From: Roseibacillus sp.
GTDB taxonomy: Bacteria > Verrucomicrobiota > Verrucomicrobiia > Verrucomicrobiales > Akkermansiaceae
Assembly (NCBI GenBank): GCA_965242925.1
Contig: CBDEUM010000022.1
Coordinates: forward strand, 96,001-160,000
Direction: 5' to 3'
DNA: 64,000 nt
The position numbers were made by a program, and so were the translations under genes. Position 1 is the first letter of the stretch. Each line of letters opens with the position of its first letter. Of the stretch, positions 2,095 to 37,610 are shown in pieces. Below the pieces are notes generated by a model. It was not told where the DNA came from. It saw only the letters and a program-made list of their open reading frames with translations, and did not search any database.

Positions 2095-3675
2095 CTACCT
2101 GCCCTCCGCCTGCAGCTTCTGCACCATTTCAAGGGCCTTGCGAGCCGGTTCGAGATCCGGTTCCAGCTTCAGCGCCTCCTCCAGCATGCCCGCCGCCGCT
2201 CCCAGGTTCCCGTAACTCGCCAGCATGGTCCCGTAATCAAGATAGAACTCCGCCTGCGGTTCGAGGGCGAGGGCGCGCTCGAAGTGTGCCGCCGCCCGTT
2301 CCGCCTGCCGTTGCGCCTTGTATTTTTTCCCCCTCTCGTGGTGTCGGCGGGCGATCCCAGATTCGAGAGCCACCCGCCGACTGCCACTCGCCTGCTCATG
2401 GGCGGCTTCCAGGAAATAGAGCGCCTCTTCCGGAAGGCGCTCCTCGAATTGCCGTGCCATGAATTCCAACGCGTAGACCGGATCCACCGGCTTGGTAAAC
2501 CATCGCCCTGCCAGCGGAGGGGCCCAGGTGTGCCACCTCTCTCCATCCGCCGCACGAAGCGCCTTCAAATCCGCCTCGATGACAGCCGCCTCGAGCGATC
2601 CGCGGTAGATTCCCATCACTTCCCCCCCGCCCCCGCAGAGGAAGGCCATCGGAACGGTCATGGGAACGCTCACATCAAAGAGGGCCCGCTGAAATTCGTG
2701 CAGAGAGGCCAGCGAGGAACCCTCGAGGCTTCCCCACTCAAAGGGCCAACGCACTTCCTCCATCACGCCTGCTGCCTTCTCGCGTAATTCTTCTCCGTCC
2801 ACGTTGAGAGCGACAACCAGCGGCAACCCCATCACCCGATACATCCCAGCCGCCCGGGCCATGAGTCCCAACTCGCGCCTCGAAACCGGACAGTCCGCCG
2901 ACCAGAGCACAACCAGCTGGGGCGCCCCCTGGCCCATGAGCAGTCCCGGCTCTCCATCCGCACTCCTGAAGTCCAAAGGCGGGAGCAGAATCCTGGCCGG
3001 AGGGTTGATTCGGGCGGTGTCATCCCGACCTGCCAGAGACGGCGTCGCCGGAGTGGTCGCAATCGATCGGGGCGCTCTCTCTACCGGCACAGCCCCGCCA
3101 CTACCCTGCTTCAGGCGAAAGGCTCCCCCTGCCCCCAATCCTCCAAATTCCTCCACCTTGCCTCCCGGCCAGATCACCCGTGCCCTGCTCACCTTCCCGG
3201 GCTGTCCCAGTCCGAAATGCAGCCAGCGACTCGACTGCGACAGGAACAGATCCCCCGCCCGGACGGACCTGACGGATCGCACAGTCCCCGCCGCTCCCCC
3301 CGCCATCAGTTCGACCACCGCGCCAATGGCATTACGGTTGCACTCGCTGCCCTCAAGAAGCAGGGCCACAGAATCCCCCGTGTGTGTCGAGTTGTGTGAA
3401 TTCAGCATCAATCGCAGGCGGGGCGCGGTCCGGTCACGATACCAGAGGTCCAGATCGCCGTCCTGGTCCCAGTCCACCACCGCAAGCGCCCGTCCGTCGC
3501 CATCCTGATCCAGTCCGATTACCGAAGACACATCGGCAAATCCCCCCACCCGGTCGTTGAGAAGGCACCGGTTGCGTTCGCGTCCGCTCCACGAGCGCCC
3601 GTCCCGCACCATCTGCAGGAGAGCCGTCCAGGCATTGCCATAGATTCGAGGGTCGGCCTGCTGCTTCGGCGACAC
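2095..3675 (-). CDS. C-terminal part of CRTAC1/ASPIC-UnbV protein: FG-GAP repeat, ASPIC/UnbV, thioredoxin-like and TPR regions; probably fused to 3697-5619 by UGA recoding
   Basis: DWDQDGDLDLW repeat, NRNAIGAVV...SQSSRWLHFGLG (ASPIC/UnbV), LWSADCPVS, TPR-like C-terminus; no signal peptide; same frame as the upstream ORF. Confidence 0.85.
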   Translation of the reverse strand: MSPKQQADPRIYGNAWTALLQMVRDGRSWSGRERNRCLLNDRVGGFADVSSVIGLDQDGDGRALAVVDWDQDGDLDLWYRDRTAPRLRLMLNSHNSTHTGDSVALLLEGSECNRNAIGAVVELMAGGAAGTVRSVRSVRAGDLFLSQSSRWLHFGLGQPGKVSRARVIWPGGKVEEFGGLGAGGAFRLKQGSGGAVPVERAPRSIATTPATPSLAGRDDTARINPPARILLPPLDFRSADGEPGLLMGQGAPQLVVLWSADCPVSRRELGLMARAAGMYRVMGLPLVVALNVDGEELREKAAGVMEEVRWPFEWGSLEGSSLASLHEFQRALFDVSVPMTVPMAFLCGGGGEVMGIYRGSLEAAVIEADLKALRAADGERWHTWAPPLAGRWFTKPVDPVYALEFMARQFEERLPEEALYFLEAAHEQASGSRRVALESGIARRHHERGKKYKAQRQAERAAAHFERALALEPQAEFYLDYGTMLASYGNLGAAAGMLEEALKLEPDLEPARKALEMVQKLQAEGR

Positions 3676-3691
3676 GACCTGCCGCCAGAAG
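3664..3691 (-). promoter_or_regulatory. Putative bacterial SECIS hairpin just downstream of the in-frame UGA at 3697-3699
   Basis: mRNA UGA-AGUUU-CUUC-U-GGCGGCA-GGUCG-UGUCGCC-GAAG: 4-bp lower stem, bulged U, 7-bp upper stem, loop starting GG 17 nt after UGA. Confidence 0.7.
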
Positions 3692-3696
3692 AAACT

Positions 3697-5619
3697 TCAC
3701 AGATCATCAGGCTCCCGACCGGTGAGGAACCCGTTTGAAATCACCAGGTCCTCCCATCCATCGTTGTTGAGATCCCCGAAACCCGAACTCCAGGCCCACT
3801 GGCCCAGATGACTCCGGGTCGCTTCACTCACATCCTGGAATTTAGTTCCCTTCTCGCCCTGACCTCCCGCAAAGAGCGAATTTCCCCGGGCCATCCTCCG
3901 CAGATCTCCCACCAGCGCGGCATCGGCACCCTCCTTGAAGAACTCCTGCCGGCTCACCCGGTTCCCCGCCGCCGAAAACATGTTTCCCACGTAAAGGTCC
4001 GGGGCTCCGTCCCGGTTATAGTCGCCCCACGCCACCGACATTCCGGACGCCATATCCTCCAACTGCAACGCACCCGCAATTTGCCGGAAGTGCCCCCCCT
4101 CATTCCGGTAGAAGCAATTCCGACCGAAATCGTTGGCCACATAGAGATCCGGGTCGCCATCCCGGTCGTAGTCCTCCCAGGCCGCTCCAAAACTCCACCG
4201 GGTATTGTCGACGCCCAGGCCCACTGCTTCCGTGGCATCCGCAAACCCGAACATCCCGAGGTTTTTCAACAGGACGTTGCGCCCACCGTTCTCAGCATCA
4301 TTAAAGGGGAGAGGGGCTCTCACCTCGAATCCCCGCCGTTCCGCGTTGTCCCCCGCACTGTAGACACAGACATAAATATCCAGCAATCCGTCACTGTCGA
4401 AATCGGCCGCGCTCAGGGAGAAGGGATAACGCGCGCCCGGATGGCCACCCCGCAGGCTGAAAATTCCAGTGCCGTCGTTCTCCAGGAAGACGACCATTGC
4501 GATGGTTGCTACCACCAGGTCCTCGTCCCCGTCATTGTCGAGATCGACCAGCAGCGCGCTTCGTGAATCTTCCAGCCAGTTCACTCCCGCTTCGGCCGAG
4601 GTCTCCTCCACCGTGCCATCGGGCTGCTGGACATACAGCCGGTTCGGCAGACTTCCCGCGTCACAGACGTAGAGGTCCTCAAGTCCATCCCCATTGACGT
4701 CTCCCACCGCCAGTCCGTGATGCCCTGTCAGCGAAAAATCTCCCAGTCGTGTCAGCCTGGTGGCCCAGTCCCCGGTTCCCCGCAGAACCTGCTCACGGTA
4801 ATGGGGCGTCCCGCCCAGCACGACCGGCCCAACATCGACGAATCCCTGTCCCGGCTTTCTAACCAGGGACTCTTCATAGTGCCGCACCTGGAGAGATGCC
4901 AGCCGCGGAGGATCCTCCAGGGTCCAGCGAGTATACCACGAGGTAGTGACCTGGCGACGGAAGACTCCATCCGCTTCCCCGCTTCTCAACTCCACCATCA
5001 CCTCCGCGGAAAACCCTGAATCAAGTTCCTGCCCCGCCAGCACCTTGACCGACATGTCGGGAACCACGTCCGGAGCCCCCTTCCCCAACCAGTCAGCGCG
5101 GGTTGCCGCAAAGCCCTCCCACCCGTGATGGCTCTCCGCGTCGACAAGGGACTCCTCCGGGCGCAGGAACTGAATACCCCCGTGATTCTCCACCTCTTTG
5201 AGTCTGGCGGGACGCAGATCCGAACAGACGAAACTCTCCGCCAGCATTCCTGCCTCACCTGAAGCAAATAAGGCGTGCAACCTCCGGACCACCGCCGCGC
5301 TTCGGTTCTCGGATTCCCATTCCCTCCCCGGTTCCAGCTTCTCCAGCTCGGCCTCGATTCCCCCGGGTTCCGGGCGCCGCGAGCTCTGAACGGGGGTCCC
5401 CGCCACCACCCGCAGCACTCCCGATTCCTTGCCTCCCGGGCTTTCCCCCCGAACCTGGAGGGCCACCAACTCATCATCAAGGTCCAATGGCAGAGGCCTG
5501 GAATCACTCACCCCCGACTCCTGCAGAGGATCCCGGCCGGACGCCTCCTTCCTGTCACACCCCCCCAGACCCCACCCCAGCACACTTGTGGCGAAGACGA
5601 GAAAGAGACGAGCCGACAT
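3697..5619 (-). CDS. N-terminal part of CRTAC1-family lipoprotein with FG-GAP/VCBS repeats; ends at an in-frame TGA (candidate Sec codon)
   Basis: Lipoprotein signal from ATG 5619 (MSARLFLVFATSVLGWGLGG/C); repeats GDVNGDGLEDLY, DLDNDGDEDL, DFDSDGLLDIY, DYDRDGDPDLY, DYNRDGAPDLY, DLNNDGWEDL. Confidence 0.88.
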   Translation of the reverse strand: MSARLFLVFATSVLGWGLGGCDRKEASGRDPLQESGVSDSRPLPLDLDDELVALQVRGESPGGKESGVLRVVAGTPVQSSRRPEPGGIEAELEKLEPGREWESENRSAAVVRRLHALFASGEAGMLAESFVCSDLRPARLKEVENHGGIQFLRPEESLVDAESHHGWEGFAATRADWLGKGAPDVVPDMSVKVLAGQELDSGFSAEVMVELRSGEADGVFRRQVTTSWYTRWTLEDPPRLASLQVRHYEESLVRKPGQGFVDVGPVVLGGTPHYREQVLRGTGDWATRLTRLGDFSLTGHHGLAVGDVNGDGLEDLYVCDAGSLPNRLYVQQPDGTVEETSAEAGVNWLEDSRSALLVDLDNDGDEDLVVATIAMVVFLENDGTGIFSLRGGHPGARYPFSLSAADFDSDGLLDIYVCVYSAGDNAERRGFEVRAPLPFNDAENGGRNVLLKNLGMFGFADATEAVGLGVDNTRWSFGAAWEDYDRDGDPDLYVANDFGRNCFYRNEGGHFRQIAGALQLEDMASGMSVAWGDYNRDGAPDLYVGNMFSAAGNRVSRQEFFKEGADAALVGDLRRMARGNSLFAGGQGEKGTKFQDVSEATRSHLGQWAWSSGFGDLNNDGWEDLVISNGFLTGREPDDL

Positions 5620-5641
5620 CGGACGGAACAATCGTTTTTTC

Positions 5642-6982
5642 CTACAACGCGAGTGCCTCCCTGGCCTCTGCAAAAGCCCCGGCTGGAACTCCCATCCGCT
5701 GCATCATGGCGAGGTGGAGGCGCGACATGGACGTAGCACGCCAGGGCTTGAGATAACGTCCGGTCCTGAGCGTTCCATCTCCTCCACCTGCGAGCAGCAC
5801 AGGCAGATCCTTTTCCGCATGCTCATCTCCGTCAGCAATGCTCGACCCGTAGACAATCATCGAGCGCTCCAGCACACTCACCCCGTCTCCATCCTTGAGC
5901 TCCTTGAGCCGATCCAGGAACCAGGCCAATTGGGCGTGATGCCAACTGGTCACCTCGTTATACTGTTCCTTCTTGCTACGGACGCTGTCCCACTCCGTGA
6001 TCCCGTCGTCGTCTTCCGTCCGCCCACTGGCATTCTTCCAGTGTGAAAGGGCATGCCAGGTCCCCTTTACACCGGGCAGAAAGTTGAAGTAGCGGTTGCT
6101 CTGCCCGTGATCCAGCATGCAGGTCGAGACCCGCGTCGCCCCGGACCAGAATGCCAGGGCCATCAAGTCGAGCAATTGCCGCACATACTCCTCATGGCTG
6201 GCCGGGATTCCCGGCTTGGGACGTCTCAGGGTATCGGTCAGCGCATTATCCGCTCCGAGGCGTCTGCTCTGTTCCTCCGCAAAGGCAAGGCGCTTTTCGA
6301 TCGCCCGCACCGCCTCGAGATACTCGTCTATCTTCCGTTGGTCAGCCCCGCTGGCACGGCGTTTGAGATCCTTCGACTGGGCCAGGACCTGATCGATTAC
6401 GCTCTTGTCCACGAACCCTTCCTTCGCCTTCCGGAAAAGCTTGTCAAAGATGGCTCGCGGAACCGTCTCACGCACCGCAGGCACGTCGCGTGCCGTCCAC
6501 GACAGGCAGTTGCGGGAAAGACTTCCAGAAAAACTACCCTCTCCTGCAGTGCTCATTTCGAGAGACGGGAGGGGCGAACCGTCAGACAGGTGACGCGCCA
6601 CCAGTTGATCAACCGAGGGCCCACCCACGTCATTCCTCCGCCGGTCATAGGACCCGCCGGTGAGCCAGGTCGCCGTCCCCGCTCCATGCCCGTTGCCCCG
6701 GGGAGTCCACAGGTTCCGGGTCACGATCAGATCTTCCTTGTGATCCTCCAACGGGGCCATCCATTCATTAAGTTGCTCGAGTTTACCGTCGGATCCGACC
6801 TTGCGGGGAGTCCAGGAACCCTTGGACGAGCCGTTGGGAAAGTAGAGGTAGGCCAACCGCGTGGCCGAATCAGATCCGCCTGCCGCTGCCGGGACGGGCG
6901 CTCCCAGACTCTCCAGAGTGGGCAGGAATAGACAGGCTCCAGCTCCCCGCAGGAAGGCGCGCCGGTTGGAGGGCAGATTCAT
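5642..6982 (-). CDS. DUF1552 (HXXSHH) domain protein with Tat-like signal
   Basis: NRRAFLRGAG...LPTLESL N-terminus, YFPNG, SVDQLVA, HALSHW, LPVLLAGGG; downstream of its usual DUF1592 partner. Confidence 0.88.
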   Translation of the reverse strand: MNLPSNRRAFLRGAGACLFLPTLESLGAPVPAAAGGSDSATRLAYLYFPNGSSKGSWTPRKVGSDGKLEQLNEWMAPLEDHKEDLIVTRNLWTPRGNGHGAGTATWLTGGSYDRRRNDVGGPSVDQLVARHLSDGSPLPSLEMSTAGEGSFSGSLSRNCLSWTARDVPAVRETVPRAIFDKLFRKAKEGFVDKSVIDQVLAQSKDLKRRASGADQRKIDEYLEAVRAIEKRLAFAEEQSRRLGADNALTDTLRRPKPGIPASHEEYVRQLLDLMALAFWSGATRVSTCMLDHGQSNRYFNFLPGVKGTWHALSHWKNASGRTEDDDGITEWDSVRSKKEQYNEVTSWHHAQLAWFLDRLKELKDGDGVSVLERSMIVYGSSIADGDEHAEKDLPVLLAGGGDGTLRTGRYLKPWRATSMSRLHLAMMQRMGVPAGAFAEAREALAL

Positions 6983-9519
6983 TCTTTGCTGGAAGGCGAT
7001 GAGGCGTTCAGACTTGTGGGCAGCCGCCGTGTGGCAAACGGGTAACTCCCTGCAATTTCCCTTAGCATGGCACCCATCGGATAACCAGCGGGTTTCAACG
7101 TGGCCGCAATCGCGCGCACGGTCGCTTCATCATAATACTCCAGTTGACGGCCCAGCGCGTAAGCCAGCATCTTACGGATGACCTGGGTTCCCAGATCGTC
7201 GAGACGCCACTCCCGGAGCGCAATCTTCAAGCCTTCGGGACCACGGAACTTCGCGCCATTTGGCAGCGTTCCCCGGTTGTCCACCCCTGAGCGCCACTGC
7301 CCGAACTCCGCATAGTTCTCCAGGGCAAACCCCAGCGGGTCTATCCGGGAGTGACACCCAGCACAGCGGGCCGACCGGCGATGACCCTCCAGCTGCTGCC
7401 GCAGGTTGCGAACGCCCTCCCGGCCTCTCTCCTCCACATCAATCTCCGGCACGTCCGGCGGAGGCGGAGGCGGAGGCGTTCCCAGCAGGGTGGTGAGGAT
7501 CCATGTTCCCCGCACCACCGGACTGGTGCGATCAGGAAAGGAGGTGGCAGCCAGAACGCTGGCATGCCCCAGGACACCTCCACGACGGGAGGTCTCCAGT
7601 CGGACCCTCCGCATCGCTTCACCCTTTACGCCCGGGATGCGATAGAAACGCGCCAGTTCCTCATTGAGGAAGGTGTAATCAGTATCGATCAGACCCACCA
7701 CCGGGGCATTTTCCACAATGAGCGAGTGCACGAACCAGGCCGTCTCATCACGCATGGCTTTCATCAGGGATTCCGTGCACCAGGGATTGTCGATGGGATC
7801 CTTGCGGATGCGCGGACCGACATTGTGGGTCCCCAGCCACTCCCCCGCAAAAATCTCGCCAAGAGCCAGGCTGCGAGAATCCGCGAGCATGCGCACGACC
7901 TGCTCCTCGCGGCCGTCCCGGCGAACCAACTGCCCTGCCTCTGCCGCGGCCAACAGTGCCCCATCCGGCGTGGAGGCCCAGAGGAAGTACGACAGACGTG
8001 AGGCCAGATCGCGGGCCGACACCGTCCCATCCTCACCGGGTGGCCCCGCCTCTTCGACCCGCAGGAGAAAGCGGGGTGAGATGAGGACAAACTTGAACGC
8101 AGCCGCGAGGGCATCGTCCTCCGAACAACCCGCCCTTCGAGCCTGTTCGAATTGATCAACCACCTCGGTAAACTCCGCTTTGCCGGGCTCCCATCGGTAA
8201 GCCAGGCGCACGAACTTCCGGAGGGTCTCCTCACTATCGGCTCCGCCTCGCAGGGCAGCCCAGGCAGTGGGGTTTCCGCGCACCGCCTCAATGACCAGTT
8301 CCGCCGAGGTCAGGTAGCGATCAAGATGTGCGGTTGCCAGGAACAGGGTGTTGGTACTATTGGAGAATCCACTCGTCCCACTGAAGTCGGCCGGAAACTG
8401 GTCGGCGGGACGCAGGTCGAGGCCAACCAGATCGCGGATCGTCCGGTTGTATTCCTCCCGGGTGAGCCGCCGCGCCTGCAGGTATCCAGGATTGCGCACC
8501 TGATCGTATGGGAATTGCTCGATTTCCTGGCGCAGCCAGGCGCGCAGACGCAGCCTGTCCTCCCCGGACGGCTGCGGCTTCTTCCGAGGGGGCATGTCCC
8601 CGTTCCGGATTCGTTCCGCCACATTCTCCCAGAGCAGCCGGTTACGCACGAGCGGCTTCTGCGAGAGCGCCTTCTCCAGGTCGAGATCTCCCTTGGCACT
8701 GGCTGTGTCATGACAATCAAAACAGTAGGTCTCCAGGGTTGTGACCACGTGCTTGTCGAACTGGAACGTCACCCCTTCCAGCTCATCCGGACGCTCCTTC
8801 CCTTGCGCTGGAGGTGGCGTATAGATTGCCCCCCCCTGATCGGGCTCTCCTTCCGGGTCCGGATCCTCCCCCCCTTCTTCGAGCTCCCCGAGAAACTCCG
8901 CGATCATTTCATTAACCGCCCGGCGAGGGTTGGCGATGCGCCACTCCAGCTCCTCCGCAAGCTCTTCGGTCTGCTCCTCATCACCCTCTTCCCGGGCCCA
9001 TTCCAACTCCTGCTTCGTGATTTCGTTTACAATCTTCCAGCGCTCCTCCATGAGGGCACGCAAGGACTCCTCGGCTATCCCTTCGGTGATTTTTTTCTCT
9101 TCATACTTCCAGGCCAGATACTCAAGAGCTGCATCATTGGCCATTTCCCCCACCATCAGGCTGGCCCACTCAACACCGTCCTCCTTCGCTTCTTCCCACT
9201 CCTCACGCATTCGCTCCACGCGCCCGTAGGCTTCCTCCAGGACTTCCTCATATCCCTTTTCCCGGGCCTCCTCAATGACCTGCCATAATCGCCCGGCATG
9301 CGCCTTGAGAAACTTCTCGTCGTCCCCCGCAAGCTCCCCGGTTGCCCATTGCGCAGTTCCTGCCAGCACCCCAAGGAGCCCGGTCAGCAGAAAACGCAAG
9401 GAGGTCACGGAAAGAACCTGACGTCTTTTGGCTCCGAGAACAACGTCAAGAACAGGGGAAGCCATGCCTCGAACGGGTCCCACGCCGTAATATTGAAGAG
9501 GGCAGGTCCGCCTTTCCAC
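6979..9519 (-). CDS. DUF1592/DUF1588/DUF1587/DUF1585 protein with planctomycete cytochrome c domain
   Basis: CFDCH...MPP, RRLTREEYNRTIRDL, LASRLSYFLW, TSPVVRG, CAGCH..IDPLGF, YALGR; start uncertain. Confidence 0.9.
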   Translation of the reverse strand: MERRTCPLQYYGVGPVRGMASPVLDVVLGAKRRQVLSVTSLRFLLTGLLGVLAGTAQWATGELAGDDEKFLKAHAGRLWQVIEEAREKGYEEVLEEAYGRVERMREEWEEAKEDGVEWASLMVGEMANDAALEYLAWKYEEKKITEGIAEESLRALMEERWKIVNEITKQELEWAREEGDEEQTEELAEELEWRIANPRRAVNEMIAEFLGELEEGGEDPDPEGEPDQGGAIYTPPPAQGKERPDELEGVTFQFDKHVVTTLETYCFDCHDTASAKGDLDLEKALSQKPLVRNRLLWENVAERIRNGDMPPRKKPQPSGEDRLRLRAWLRQEIEQFPYDQVRNPGYLQARRLTREEYNRTIRDLVGLDLRPADQFPADFSGTSGFSNSTNTLFLATAHLDRYLTSAELVIEAVRGNPTAWAALRGGADSEETLRKFVRLAYRWEPGKAEFTEVVDQFEQARRAGCSEDDALAAAFKFVLISPRFLLRVEEAGPPGEDGTVSARDLASRLSYFLWASTPDGALLAAAEAGQLVRRDGREEQVVRMLADSRSLALGEIFAGEWLGTHNVGPRIRKDPIDNPWCTESLMKAMRDETAWFVHSLIVENAPVVGLIDTDYTFLNEELARFYRIPGVKGEAMRRVRLETSRRGGVLGHASVLAATSFPDRTSPVVRGTWILTTLLGTPPPPPPPDVPEIDVEERGREGVRNLRQQLEGHRRSARCAGCHSRIDPLGFALENYAEFGQWRSGVDNRGTLPNGAKFRGPEGLKIALREWRLDDLGTQVIRKMLAYALGRQLEYYDEATVRAIAATLKPAGYPMGAMLREIAGSYPFATRRLPTSLNASSPSSKE

Positions 9520-37296: not shown

Positions 37297-37370
37297 TGGA
37301 GCGGGTAAAGGGAATCGAACCCTTATGGCCAGCTTGGAAGGCTGAGGCTTTACCATTAAGCTATACCCGC
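37297..37370 (-). tRNA. tRNA-Gly(TCC)
   Basis: GCGGGTA/TACCCGC acceptor stem, anticodon loop CTTCCAA, GGTTCGATTCC, encoded CCA. Confidence 0.97.
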
Positions 37371-37536: not shown

Positions 37537-37610
37537 GCGGGTGTAGTTCAGTGGTAGAATGCGAGCTTCCCAAGCTTGAGGCGAGGGTTCGATTCCCTTC
37601 ACCCGCACCA
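37537..37610 (+). tRNA. tRNA-Gly(CCC)
   Basis: GCGGGTG/CACCCGC acceptor stem, anticodon loop TTCCCAA, GGTTCGATTCC, encoded CCA. Confidence 0.97.

Follow-up and report, generated by a model that had tools for sequence, protein, structure and literature searches.

The consensus for bacterial selenocysteine insertion sequence (SECIS) elements, as outlined in the Fig. 2 legend of a 2026 AEM review (PMC13188914), comprises a loop of 3–9 nucleotides (nt), an upper stem of 4–16 base pairs (bp), a spacing of 16–37 nt and a minimum free energy (MFE) of −7.5 kcal/mol or lower, with a G in one of the first two loop positions that is usually followed by G or U. In Escherichia coli K-12 fdhF, numbering the U of UGA as nt 1 (as throughout), the UGA is followed by ...GGUUGCAGGUCUGCACC, where GCAGGUC runs from nt 19 and GGUC occupies nt 22–25. 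Herein we describe a hairpin of this kind in a 64,000-nt stretch of DNA from Roseibacillus sp. (hereafter “the window”; contig CBDEUM010000022.1, positions 96,001 to 160,000), which directly follows an in-frame UGA in a minus-strand gene of the FG-GAP/UnbV_ASPIC propeller family. The UGA (3699–3697) is very likely decoded as selenocysteine (Sec) within a large exported repeat protein, as judged from the comparative sequence evidence presented below.

The minus-strand mRNA reads UGA AGU UUC UUC UGG CGG CAG GUC GUG UCG CCG AAG from 3699, so that GCAGGUC begins at nt 18 and GGUC at nt 21. RNAfold, applied to the 60 nt after the UGA, gave an MFE of −18.5 kcal/mol with a 7-bp helix, a 4-bp extension and an unpaired U; an eighth pair (U13-G33) is possible, the alternative being a bulged U13 (3687) with CUUC and GAAG paired. 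A first-pass annotation of the window had pointed to this hairpin, and its letters for 3664–3699 match the sequence exactly, its GG-starting loop 17 nt after the UGA was confirmed, and the facts it gave for fdhF (GCAGGUC starting 16 nt after the UGA, vs. 15 here) hold on the E. coli K-12 record. Its proposal that the FWRQVVSPK codons double as the element stands for W-R-Q-V-V-S-P (nt 13–33), which form the conserved hairpin, but not for the F and K codons, which lie outside it.

Both fdhF and the window gene carry an in-coding hairpin directly after the UGA with the identical apex GCAGGUC, positioned one nt closer to the UGA in the latter. A bulged U is a defining feature of the fdhF SECIS. 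It is present in the fdhF fold, where the lower helix pairs from nt 3 onward, whereas neither a bulged U nor a lower helix is conserved in the window family, and for this reason the element is not a full copy of that of fdhF. It also differs in having a GGUCG loop closed by an A-U pair, a stem built from the codons of a conserved peptide and a verrucomicrobial host. Compared with the consensus as that figure legend gives it, the element has a 5-nt loop, 7 bp (8 with U13-G33), a GGU start, a spacing of 17 nt and a helix-only energy of −11.5 kcal/mol, all within the model, although the spacing is near the lower limit and many paralogs have only a 6-bp helix with a stand-alone energy just above −7.5 kcal/mol. 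The element can therefore be counted as a candidate member of the general bacterial SECIS class.

Results

A conserved UGA in a multiplied gene family

The open frame has its first possible start at TTG 5673, which gives a product of 1192 aa (P0001), and in the list of open reading frames (ORFs) a 658-codon frame (3697–5673) and a 526-codon frame (2095–3675) lie in one phase, with the UGA in frame. A 401-aa segment around the site was used as the query in 41 related genomes and retrieved relatives from 27 of them, including 18 of the 19 congeneric genomes; among the 150 matches listed, almost every one had exactly one TGA. The window's own genome contains 13 loci with D-L-U-S-x-x-W-R-x-V-V. 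Two pairs of these paralogs are near-identical (G000:C12:51079 with C17:49805, and C28:4493 with C37:896), and the frame of the C37 copy diverges shortly 3' of the hairpin; the pairs may have arisen by recent duplication, or they may be variants of the assembly at contig ends.

Across 153 aligned family sites, gathered from the window's own genome, the relatives and a scan of species genomes, TGA was present at 125, and a separate metagenome scan yielded 32 further UGA forms and eight sense forms. The UGA forms are spread over three phyla, the first with Roseibacillus, Akkermansiaceae and Verrucomicrobiales, the others with a metagenome-assembled genome of Planctomycetota and with Candidatus Multivorans (Acidobacteriota, Thermoanaerobaculia). 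Only two TGA codons were found outside the site in about 43,000 flanking codons of the 125 genes. The UGA is thus conserved in frame with coding conservation on both sides, which is the pattern expected of a selenoprotein gene.

Copy number was approached with a strict 27-nt pattern, whose counts are lower bounds. This gave at least 4–15 matches per genome in 18 of the 19 congeners and 8–9 in two other genera of the order, and zero in the five other genera of the family that were searched, while the reversed control gave one match in 41 genomes. In 400 other genomes across the phylum the pattern produced scattered single matches only, at a chance-like level, and that scan shows a patchy distribution and nothing beyond. 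A cruder genome-wide search for UGA followed by a GGU[CU] hairpin returned 108 candidates and recovered 11 of the 13 paralogs; it was rejected as a census, due to the fact that most candidates were off-frame noise and that selD was missed because of the upstream-ORF filter.

The hairpin in UGA and sense-codon forms

The SFFWRQVV peptide is also kept in homologs that have a sense codon in place of the UGA, and therefore it is not the product of an RNA element. These homologs allow the refutation test set by the first-pass annotation, namely whether the hairpin (at least 5 uninterrupted bp around a loop at the site) is preferentially kept in TGA-bearing members. The outcome favoured the annotation's interpretation. 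Among the genomes, 122 of 125 UGA forms but 2 of 15 sense forms had the hairpin, and among the metagenomes 32 of 32 and 1 of 8 did, which amounts to 154 of 157 UGA forms against 3 of 23 sense forms with the same peptide. A helix of 5 bp or more at a spacing of 16–18 nt was present in 117 of the 125 UGA forms. The mean folding free energy over 24 nt was −9.9 kcal/mol for UGA forms and −4.3 kcal/mol for sense forms, at similar GC contents (0.605 vs. 0.585). The metagenome scan was also searched for sense forms nested among UGA forms, and none had a Cys codon.

As a null model, 300 synonymous recodings of each sequence were drawn from the codon usage of the gene set to which it belongs. The UGA forms averaged −9.84 kcal/mol observed vs. 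−5.26 expected, with 59 of 85 at p ≤ 0.05, whereas the sense forms averaged −4.33 observed vs. −5.79 expected, with none of 15 at that level. The median p was 0.033, which means that about 3% of random synonymous encodings are equally stable.

Codon freezing, covariation and register shifts

Synonymous-site conservation pointed in the same direction as the hairpin counts, codon freezing being limited to nt 1–32. Within this interval the Val codon at nt 22–24 is GTC in 113 of 125 genes (37% background), that at nt 25–27 is GTG in 101 of 103 (43% background) and the Ser codon at nt 28–30 is TCG in 87 of 89 (21% background), while the next Ser codon (nt 34–36) uses TCC, TCA, TCT and TCG freely. 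The Ser codon at nt 4–6 is AGT in 107 of 124 vs. a background of 12%. In the window this AGU lies directly 3' of the UGA (3694–3696, minus strand); it is favoured yet outside the conserved helix.

In an alignment of 111 distinct sequences, the upper helix was paired in 83.5% of cells, with the five pairs from nt15:31 to nt19:27 at 93–95%, nt20:26 at 87% and the outermost nt14:32 at 39%. The covariation score of the hairpin was 0.140, vs. 0.087 ± 0.007 in shuffles, none of 500 reaching the observed value, and slid partners scored 0.039–0.066. Most stem pairs hardly vary and therefore carry little information either way. The informative pair is nt18:nt28, which in 137 distinct sequences (the set also used for the loop counts below) occurs as six pair types (GU 67, AU 28, CG 13, GC 11, UA 5 and UG 2) with 11 non-pairs, nine of which come from a subfamily in another register.

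Pairing is also kept when the encoded residues change. With Ser to Ala (UCG to GCG) the opposite side goes from CGG to CGC, Ser to Thr (ACG) is met by CGU, Arg to Ser (AGC) by GCU, and with Gln-Val to Arg-Ala or Arg-Thr the A-U pair becomes G-C; the double changes A-U to G-C and C-G to A-U coincide with amino-acid changes. In the WR[ST]VVR subfamily the hairpin is one position out of register (GCGCAC-GGUC-GUGCGC or GAGCAC-GGUC-GUGCUC), and the shifted-register members, these and others, rebuild a 5–7-bp hairpin around the same GGUC; still other members have AGG/UCC codons or a GUG loop. The nucleotide at position 21 is G in 126 of 137 sequences, whether its codon is CAG, ACG, UCG, GCG or CGG, and nt 24 is C in 120 of 137 across differing amino acids at the preceding codon. 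By this measure the loop of the putative element is conserved beyond coding need.

Selenocysteine machinery and other UGA genes

The genome encodes most of what Sec insertion would require. A selB gene scored above the curated cut-off, its 653-aa product having GTP_EFTU, Beta-barrel_SelB, SelB-wing_2 and SelB-wing_3 domains, and both a tRNA-SeC with anticodon tca and selD were found. The selD gene has an in-frame TGA of its own (SCAG-U-ASK), followed at 32 nt by the hairpin GCGCA-GGUCC-UGCGC. Its SECIS likewise presents the apex GCAGGUC on a G+C-rich helix of 5–7 bp, but differs from the window element in its distance from the UGA (32 vs. 17 nt) and in belonging to an unrelated gene family.

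Further genes of the genome have a UGA followed by a hairpin. A MiaB-like (UPF0004) gene (G000:C13:117888-118187, minus strand) encodes KTYG-U-QMNERDSE and then the hairpin UCCGAGC-AGGUU-GCUCGGA (GCAGGUUGC); its UGA stands at the family Cys that we take to be an Fe-S cluster ligand. The apex GCAGGU is common to selD, this MiaB-like gene and the propeller family. The other cases are a peroxiredoxin-like gene (STGG-U-TKQVC, G000:C14:407019-407378, minus strand), a TlpA-like gene (SASW-U-PPC, G000:C14:614146-614388, plus strand) and an Rdx/SelW-like gene (CAQ-U, G000:C13:44952-45140, minus strand).

Evidence that weakens the case

A number of results speak against interpreting the hairpin as a SECIS, and they concern the fold, the sampling and the genome. 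No RNA family was found at the hairpin in Rfam, where a gathering scan of the window gave two tRNAs only and an E ≤ 10 scan of 3500–3800 gave nothing. In its 66-nt context the window sequence has a folding z of −0.09, with 95 of 200 dinucleotide shuffles folding equally well or better; therefore the single sequence proves nothing, and the caution in the first-pass annotation that hairpins form easily in GC-rich DNA was fair at that level. Its 11-bp stem with a bulged U fared less well: the structure is indeed drawn in the 60-nt MFE, but across the 111 distinct sequences the lower CUUC/GAAG helix, with the bulge, is paired in only 31.1% of cells, and orthologs at 71–82% protein identity have CAAA, GCAA or AAAA in place of GAAG. 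From this alignment, the lower helix and bulged U are a feature of the window gene and its closest orthologs and not of the predicted element.

The consensus folds were also less favourable than the pair counts. RNAalifold on the 111-row alignment missed the hairpin; its output was a weak fold of 6 pairs at −1.47 kcal/mol, with GAYY 5' of the UGA (3702–3705) paired to the GGUC loop (3676–3679). Evaluated on the same alignment, the hairpin has −8.32 kcal/mol vs. −1.17 for the GAYY:GGUC structure, and random subsets of 5–20 rows return the hairpin in 51–68 of 100 runs. RNAalifold (ViennaRNA) excludes column pairs with several incompatible rows, and the miss on the full alignment is probably explained by a few such rows blocking the hairpin. 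In nearly all 111 sequences the GGUC loop has its complement in the Asp-Leu GAYY, and this complementarity may be a by-product of the conserved D-L or a competing pairing. The hairpin core was present in the MFE of only 68 of 111 single-sequence 54-nt folds, and only 78 of 125 UGA forms have a helix-only energy of −7.5 kcal/mol or lower (median −7.9). Without the energy term, the features of the consensus model were also found in 15 of 15 sense forms, and so do not discriminate.

As to sampling, the UGA-type sequences comprise paralogs as well as orthologs and are not independent samples. All of the sense-type DNA obtained came from other lineages, mainly Acidobacteriota, which confounds lineage with codon type; the recoding null, which does not depend on lineage, was added for this reason and is the sole control for it. 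Regarding the genome, two models did not find selA in the window's 89.9%-complete assembly; 18 of the 19 congeners have the gene. Finally, the aligned residue in full-length homologs is N in 39, S in 30, A in 14 and C in 7, with a few others, which is atypical for a catalytic Sec. In this tally 102 of 121 sequences matched the pattern, an eighth C being the query placeholder and two rows mis-hits.

Domain architecture and the predicted selenocysteine position

The window protein matches FG-GAP_3 (134.7 bits), FG-GAP (77.4 bits) and UnbV_ASPIC (48 bits), all above the Pfam cut-offs, with the FG-GAP_3 and FG-GAP repeats 5' of the UGA, and UnbV_ASPIC and TPR 3' of it (coordinates in Table 1). With both FG-GAP and UnbV_ASPIC it belongs to the CRTAC1 / ASPIC-UnbV FG-GAP family, whose members without selenium have FG-GAP_3, FG-GAP, UnbV_ASPIC and the SFFWRQVV motif in common with it, but lack the hairpin and encode N, S, A, C or another residue by a sense codon. 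Full-length homologs of 1100–1450 aa have a sense codon at the UGA site. The thioredoxin-like region has CPVS in the window protein vs. CxxC in most paralogs, and in homologs PF00578/PF08534 (AhpC-TSA/Redoxin) is located between ASPIC and TPR. The segment MSARLFLVFATSVLGWGLGGC at ATG 5619 is probably a lipoprotein signal, according to the lipobox rule.

Table 1 Features of the putative selenoprotein gene in the window (nt, position from the U of UGA)
Feature	Coordinates	Strand	Details
Read-through coding sequence	2095..5619	-	1174 aa from ATG 5619; stop TAG
Putative lipoprotein signal peptide	5557..5619	-	MSARLFLVFATSVLGWGLGGC, lipobox LGGC; from translation and DNA
In-frame UGA	3697..3699	-	U659 of P0001; U641 counted from Met19
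Lower helix, 5' half CUUC	3688..3691	-	nt 9-12; present here, not conserved
Upper helix, 5' arm GGCGGCA	3680..3686	-	nt 14-20; codons W-R-Q
Apical loop GGUCG	3675..3679	-	nt 21-25; begins 17 nt after UGA
Upper helix, 3' arm UGUCGCC	3668..3674	-	nt 26-32; codons V-S-P
Lower helix, 3' half GAAG	3664..3667	-	nt 33-36; present here, not conserved
UnbV_ASPIC domain	3130..3330	-	aa 782-848 of P0001; 48 bits vs. cut-off 23.4
Thioredoxin-like (TlpA/DsbE-like) region	2557..2937	-	aa 913-1039; weak DsbE match, E 0.0047

In a FastTree phylogeny of 237 segments, U and non-U have to be exchanged at least 10 times; the UGA clade includes forms with Cys, Arg, Ser, Glu and Tyr, and a 92-tip acidobacterial clade consists wholly of N/S/A/G. 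The tree was midpoint-rooted and its sampling was heavy in one genus, and it may be read as loss or as gain of Sec. Cys homologs, expected for a selenoprotein family, were found as seven forms among the 102 tallied, some of them nested among UGA forms. Most paralogs have a CxxC (Cys pair) about 260–290 residues after U. In a divergent subfamily with U-S-C-[LF]-W (G000:C34:106360, G000:C13:146637; L041, L195 and L196) a Cys stands two residues after the predicted Sec, and the U-S-C resembles a redox pair; where the frame of a member is complete, the protein is shorter (821–887 aa). An AlphaFold2 (AF2) model of the 401-aa segment had a predicted local distance difference test (pLDDT) score of 81.8 overall and of 47–59 at residues 191–220 around U, so it offers a confident propeller and no structural reading of the Sec site. 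Our favoured guess is that selenium would serve in extracytoplasmic redox chemistry or metal binding together with the CxxC/CxxS thioredoxin-like domain.

Immediately 5' of the window gene, and likewise on the minus strand (5642–9519), lie a DUF1552 (HXXSHH) gene and a gene for an 846-aa PSCyt1/PSD2-5 “planctomycete cytochrome”. DUF1552 was considered as a conserved operon partner and rejected, since none of its 25 genome copies adjoins any of the other 12 paralogs. Elsewhere in the window are two divergent tRNA-Gly genes (37297–37370, minus, and 37537–37610, plus) with anticodons tcc and ccc.

Weighing the explanations

Three things are observed in this system, namely a conserved in-frame UGA, a conserved covarying hairpin tied to the members with UGA, and the greater part of the Sec machinery. 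They are best accounted for, and we hold it to be highly probable, by a bacterial SECIS that lets the UGA be read through as Sec to give one exported lipoprotein of roughly 1174 aa. The ribosome would hold the UGA at 3699–3697 while the 7-bp helix with its GGUCG loop lies 17 nt downstream, where the C-terminal winged-helix domains of SelB would bind the helix and loop made of the W-R-Q-V-V-S-P codons. SelB would then deliver Sec-tRNA(Sec) and the frame would be read through, giving a product with an FG-GAP propeller, UnbV_ASPIC, a thioredoxin-like domain and TPR. SelB binding, the insertion of Sec itself and a role for selenium are what we infer from these observations. That the locus is one gene and not two follows from the domains on both sides of the UGA, the full-length sense homologs and the single TGA per listed match.

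The main alternative to a redox or metal-binding role for selenium is a regulatory switch, in which selenium would decide whether the product is truncated or full-length. Full-length synthesis would depend on selenium supply, a propeller-only lipoprotein of roughly 640 aa being made otherwise, and the chemistry of the selenium atom would be of little importance. Homologs have N, S, A, G, D, E, Y, R or L at the position, and therefore no universal catalytic need is visible; moreover, the UGA marks a boundary between domains, with the final FG-GAP blade on its 5' side and UnbV_ASPIC on its 3' side, and the site lies within the low-confidence AF2 insert. Set against this are the Cys forms nested among UGA forms, the U-x-C of one subfamily and the retention of UGA by more than 150 genes in three phyla, although any sense codon would be cheaper. 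We also count against it that we know of no bacterial precedent for regulatory Sec read-through, and overall we judge this switch improbable.

Less probable still is that the hairpin is a by-product of conserved WRQVV[SA]P in GC-rich coding DNA, with the UGA passed or terminated independently. This reading draws on the conservation of the peptide in sense-codon homologs, on the 3% or so of random synonymous encodings that are as stable and on the fact that hairpins are common at 60% GC, but it does not account for sense-type genes that have the same peptide without the hairpin, for codon freezing only over nt 1–32, for a stem that survives amino-acid changes and register shifts, or for a loop G at nt 21 that is kept regardless of the encoded amino acid; we give it little credence. 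Finally, that the UGA is a true stop, in two genes as publicly called or in a broken gene, is scarcely credible: database entries of 678 and 659 aa (P0003 and P0004) end there and TGA is the ordinary and commonest stop of the genome (it closes 1070 of the 2085 open frames that have at least 400 codons), but the downstream frame is open and conserved in 157 cases without a requirement for a start or ribosome site, TGA is all but absent from the flanking codons, and the homologs are single proteins.

Discussion

The family is not entirely new to the selenoprotein literature, having been named as a selenoprotein candidate, though only in a 2016 supplementary table. Those candidates agree with the window protein in their domains, gene calls divide each of them in two, the nearest match has G, not Cys, and bSECISearch predicted a SECIS in three of four; they differ in coming from another phylum, in having 1–3 copies per genome and in lacking a hairpin analysis, a comparison made by description, with gene identifiers only. 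The family names are absent from the main texts of the 2026 AEM review (PMC13188914), the GOS paper, deep-Sep and BSepDB, and from the supplements of the last two; members may still be listed in any of these resources as “hypothetical protein”. Full-text literature searches linking selenoprotein or selenocysteine to FG-GAP, ASPIC or UnbV returned nothing relevant. As far as sequence comparison can tell, the element described here is a bacterial SECIS of an ordinary kind, and the selenoprotein family that carries it is rich in copies and has hardly been noted.

A broader reading joins several of these observations, and we offer it tentatively, as possible but far less secure than the SECIS itself. 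The residue that directly precedes the deeply conserved peptide W-R-Q-V-V-[S/A]-P would be a “SECIS-ready” site, given that roughly 1 in 30 synonymous encodings of the peptide would yield a working fdhF-like SECIS, and a non-Cys-derived, extracytoplasmic Sec would form the bulk of the marine Verrucomicrobiales selenoproteome. Under this reading Sec would stand at an otherwise hypervariable position, kept or exchanged at least ten times in three phyla, in 4–15 exported lipoprotein paralogs per genome, and this use of selenium would have been missed by current catalogues.

Gene callers split these genes in two and the family names are missing from the resources, and therefore counts of the selenoproteome presumably miss a dozen or so large exported proteins per genome in marine Verrucomicrobiales and in some Planctomycetota and Acidobacteriota. 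The family would also provide an unusually clean natural data set for the rules of bacterial SECIS elements, with more than 130 distinct sequences, a common loop, six pair types at one stem position, register shifts and matched sense-codon controls. Lastly, it raises a chemical question, namely what selenium may be used for outside the cytoplasm, at a position that in most homologs is taken by Asn, Ser or Ala.

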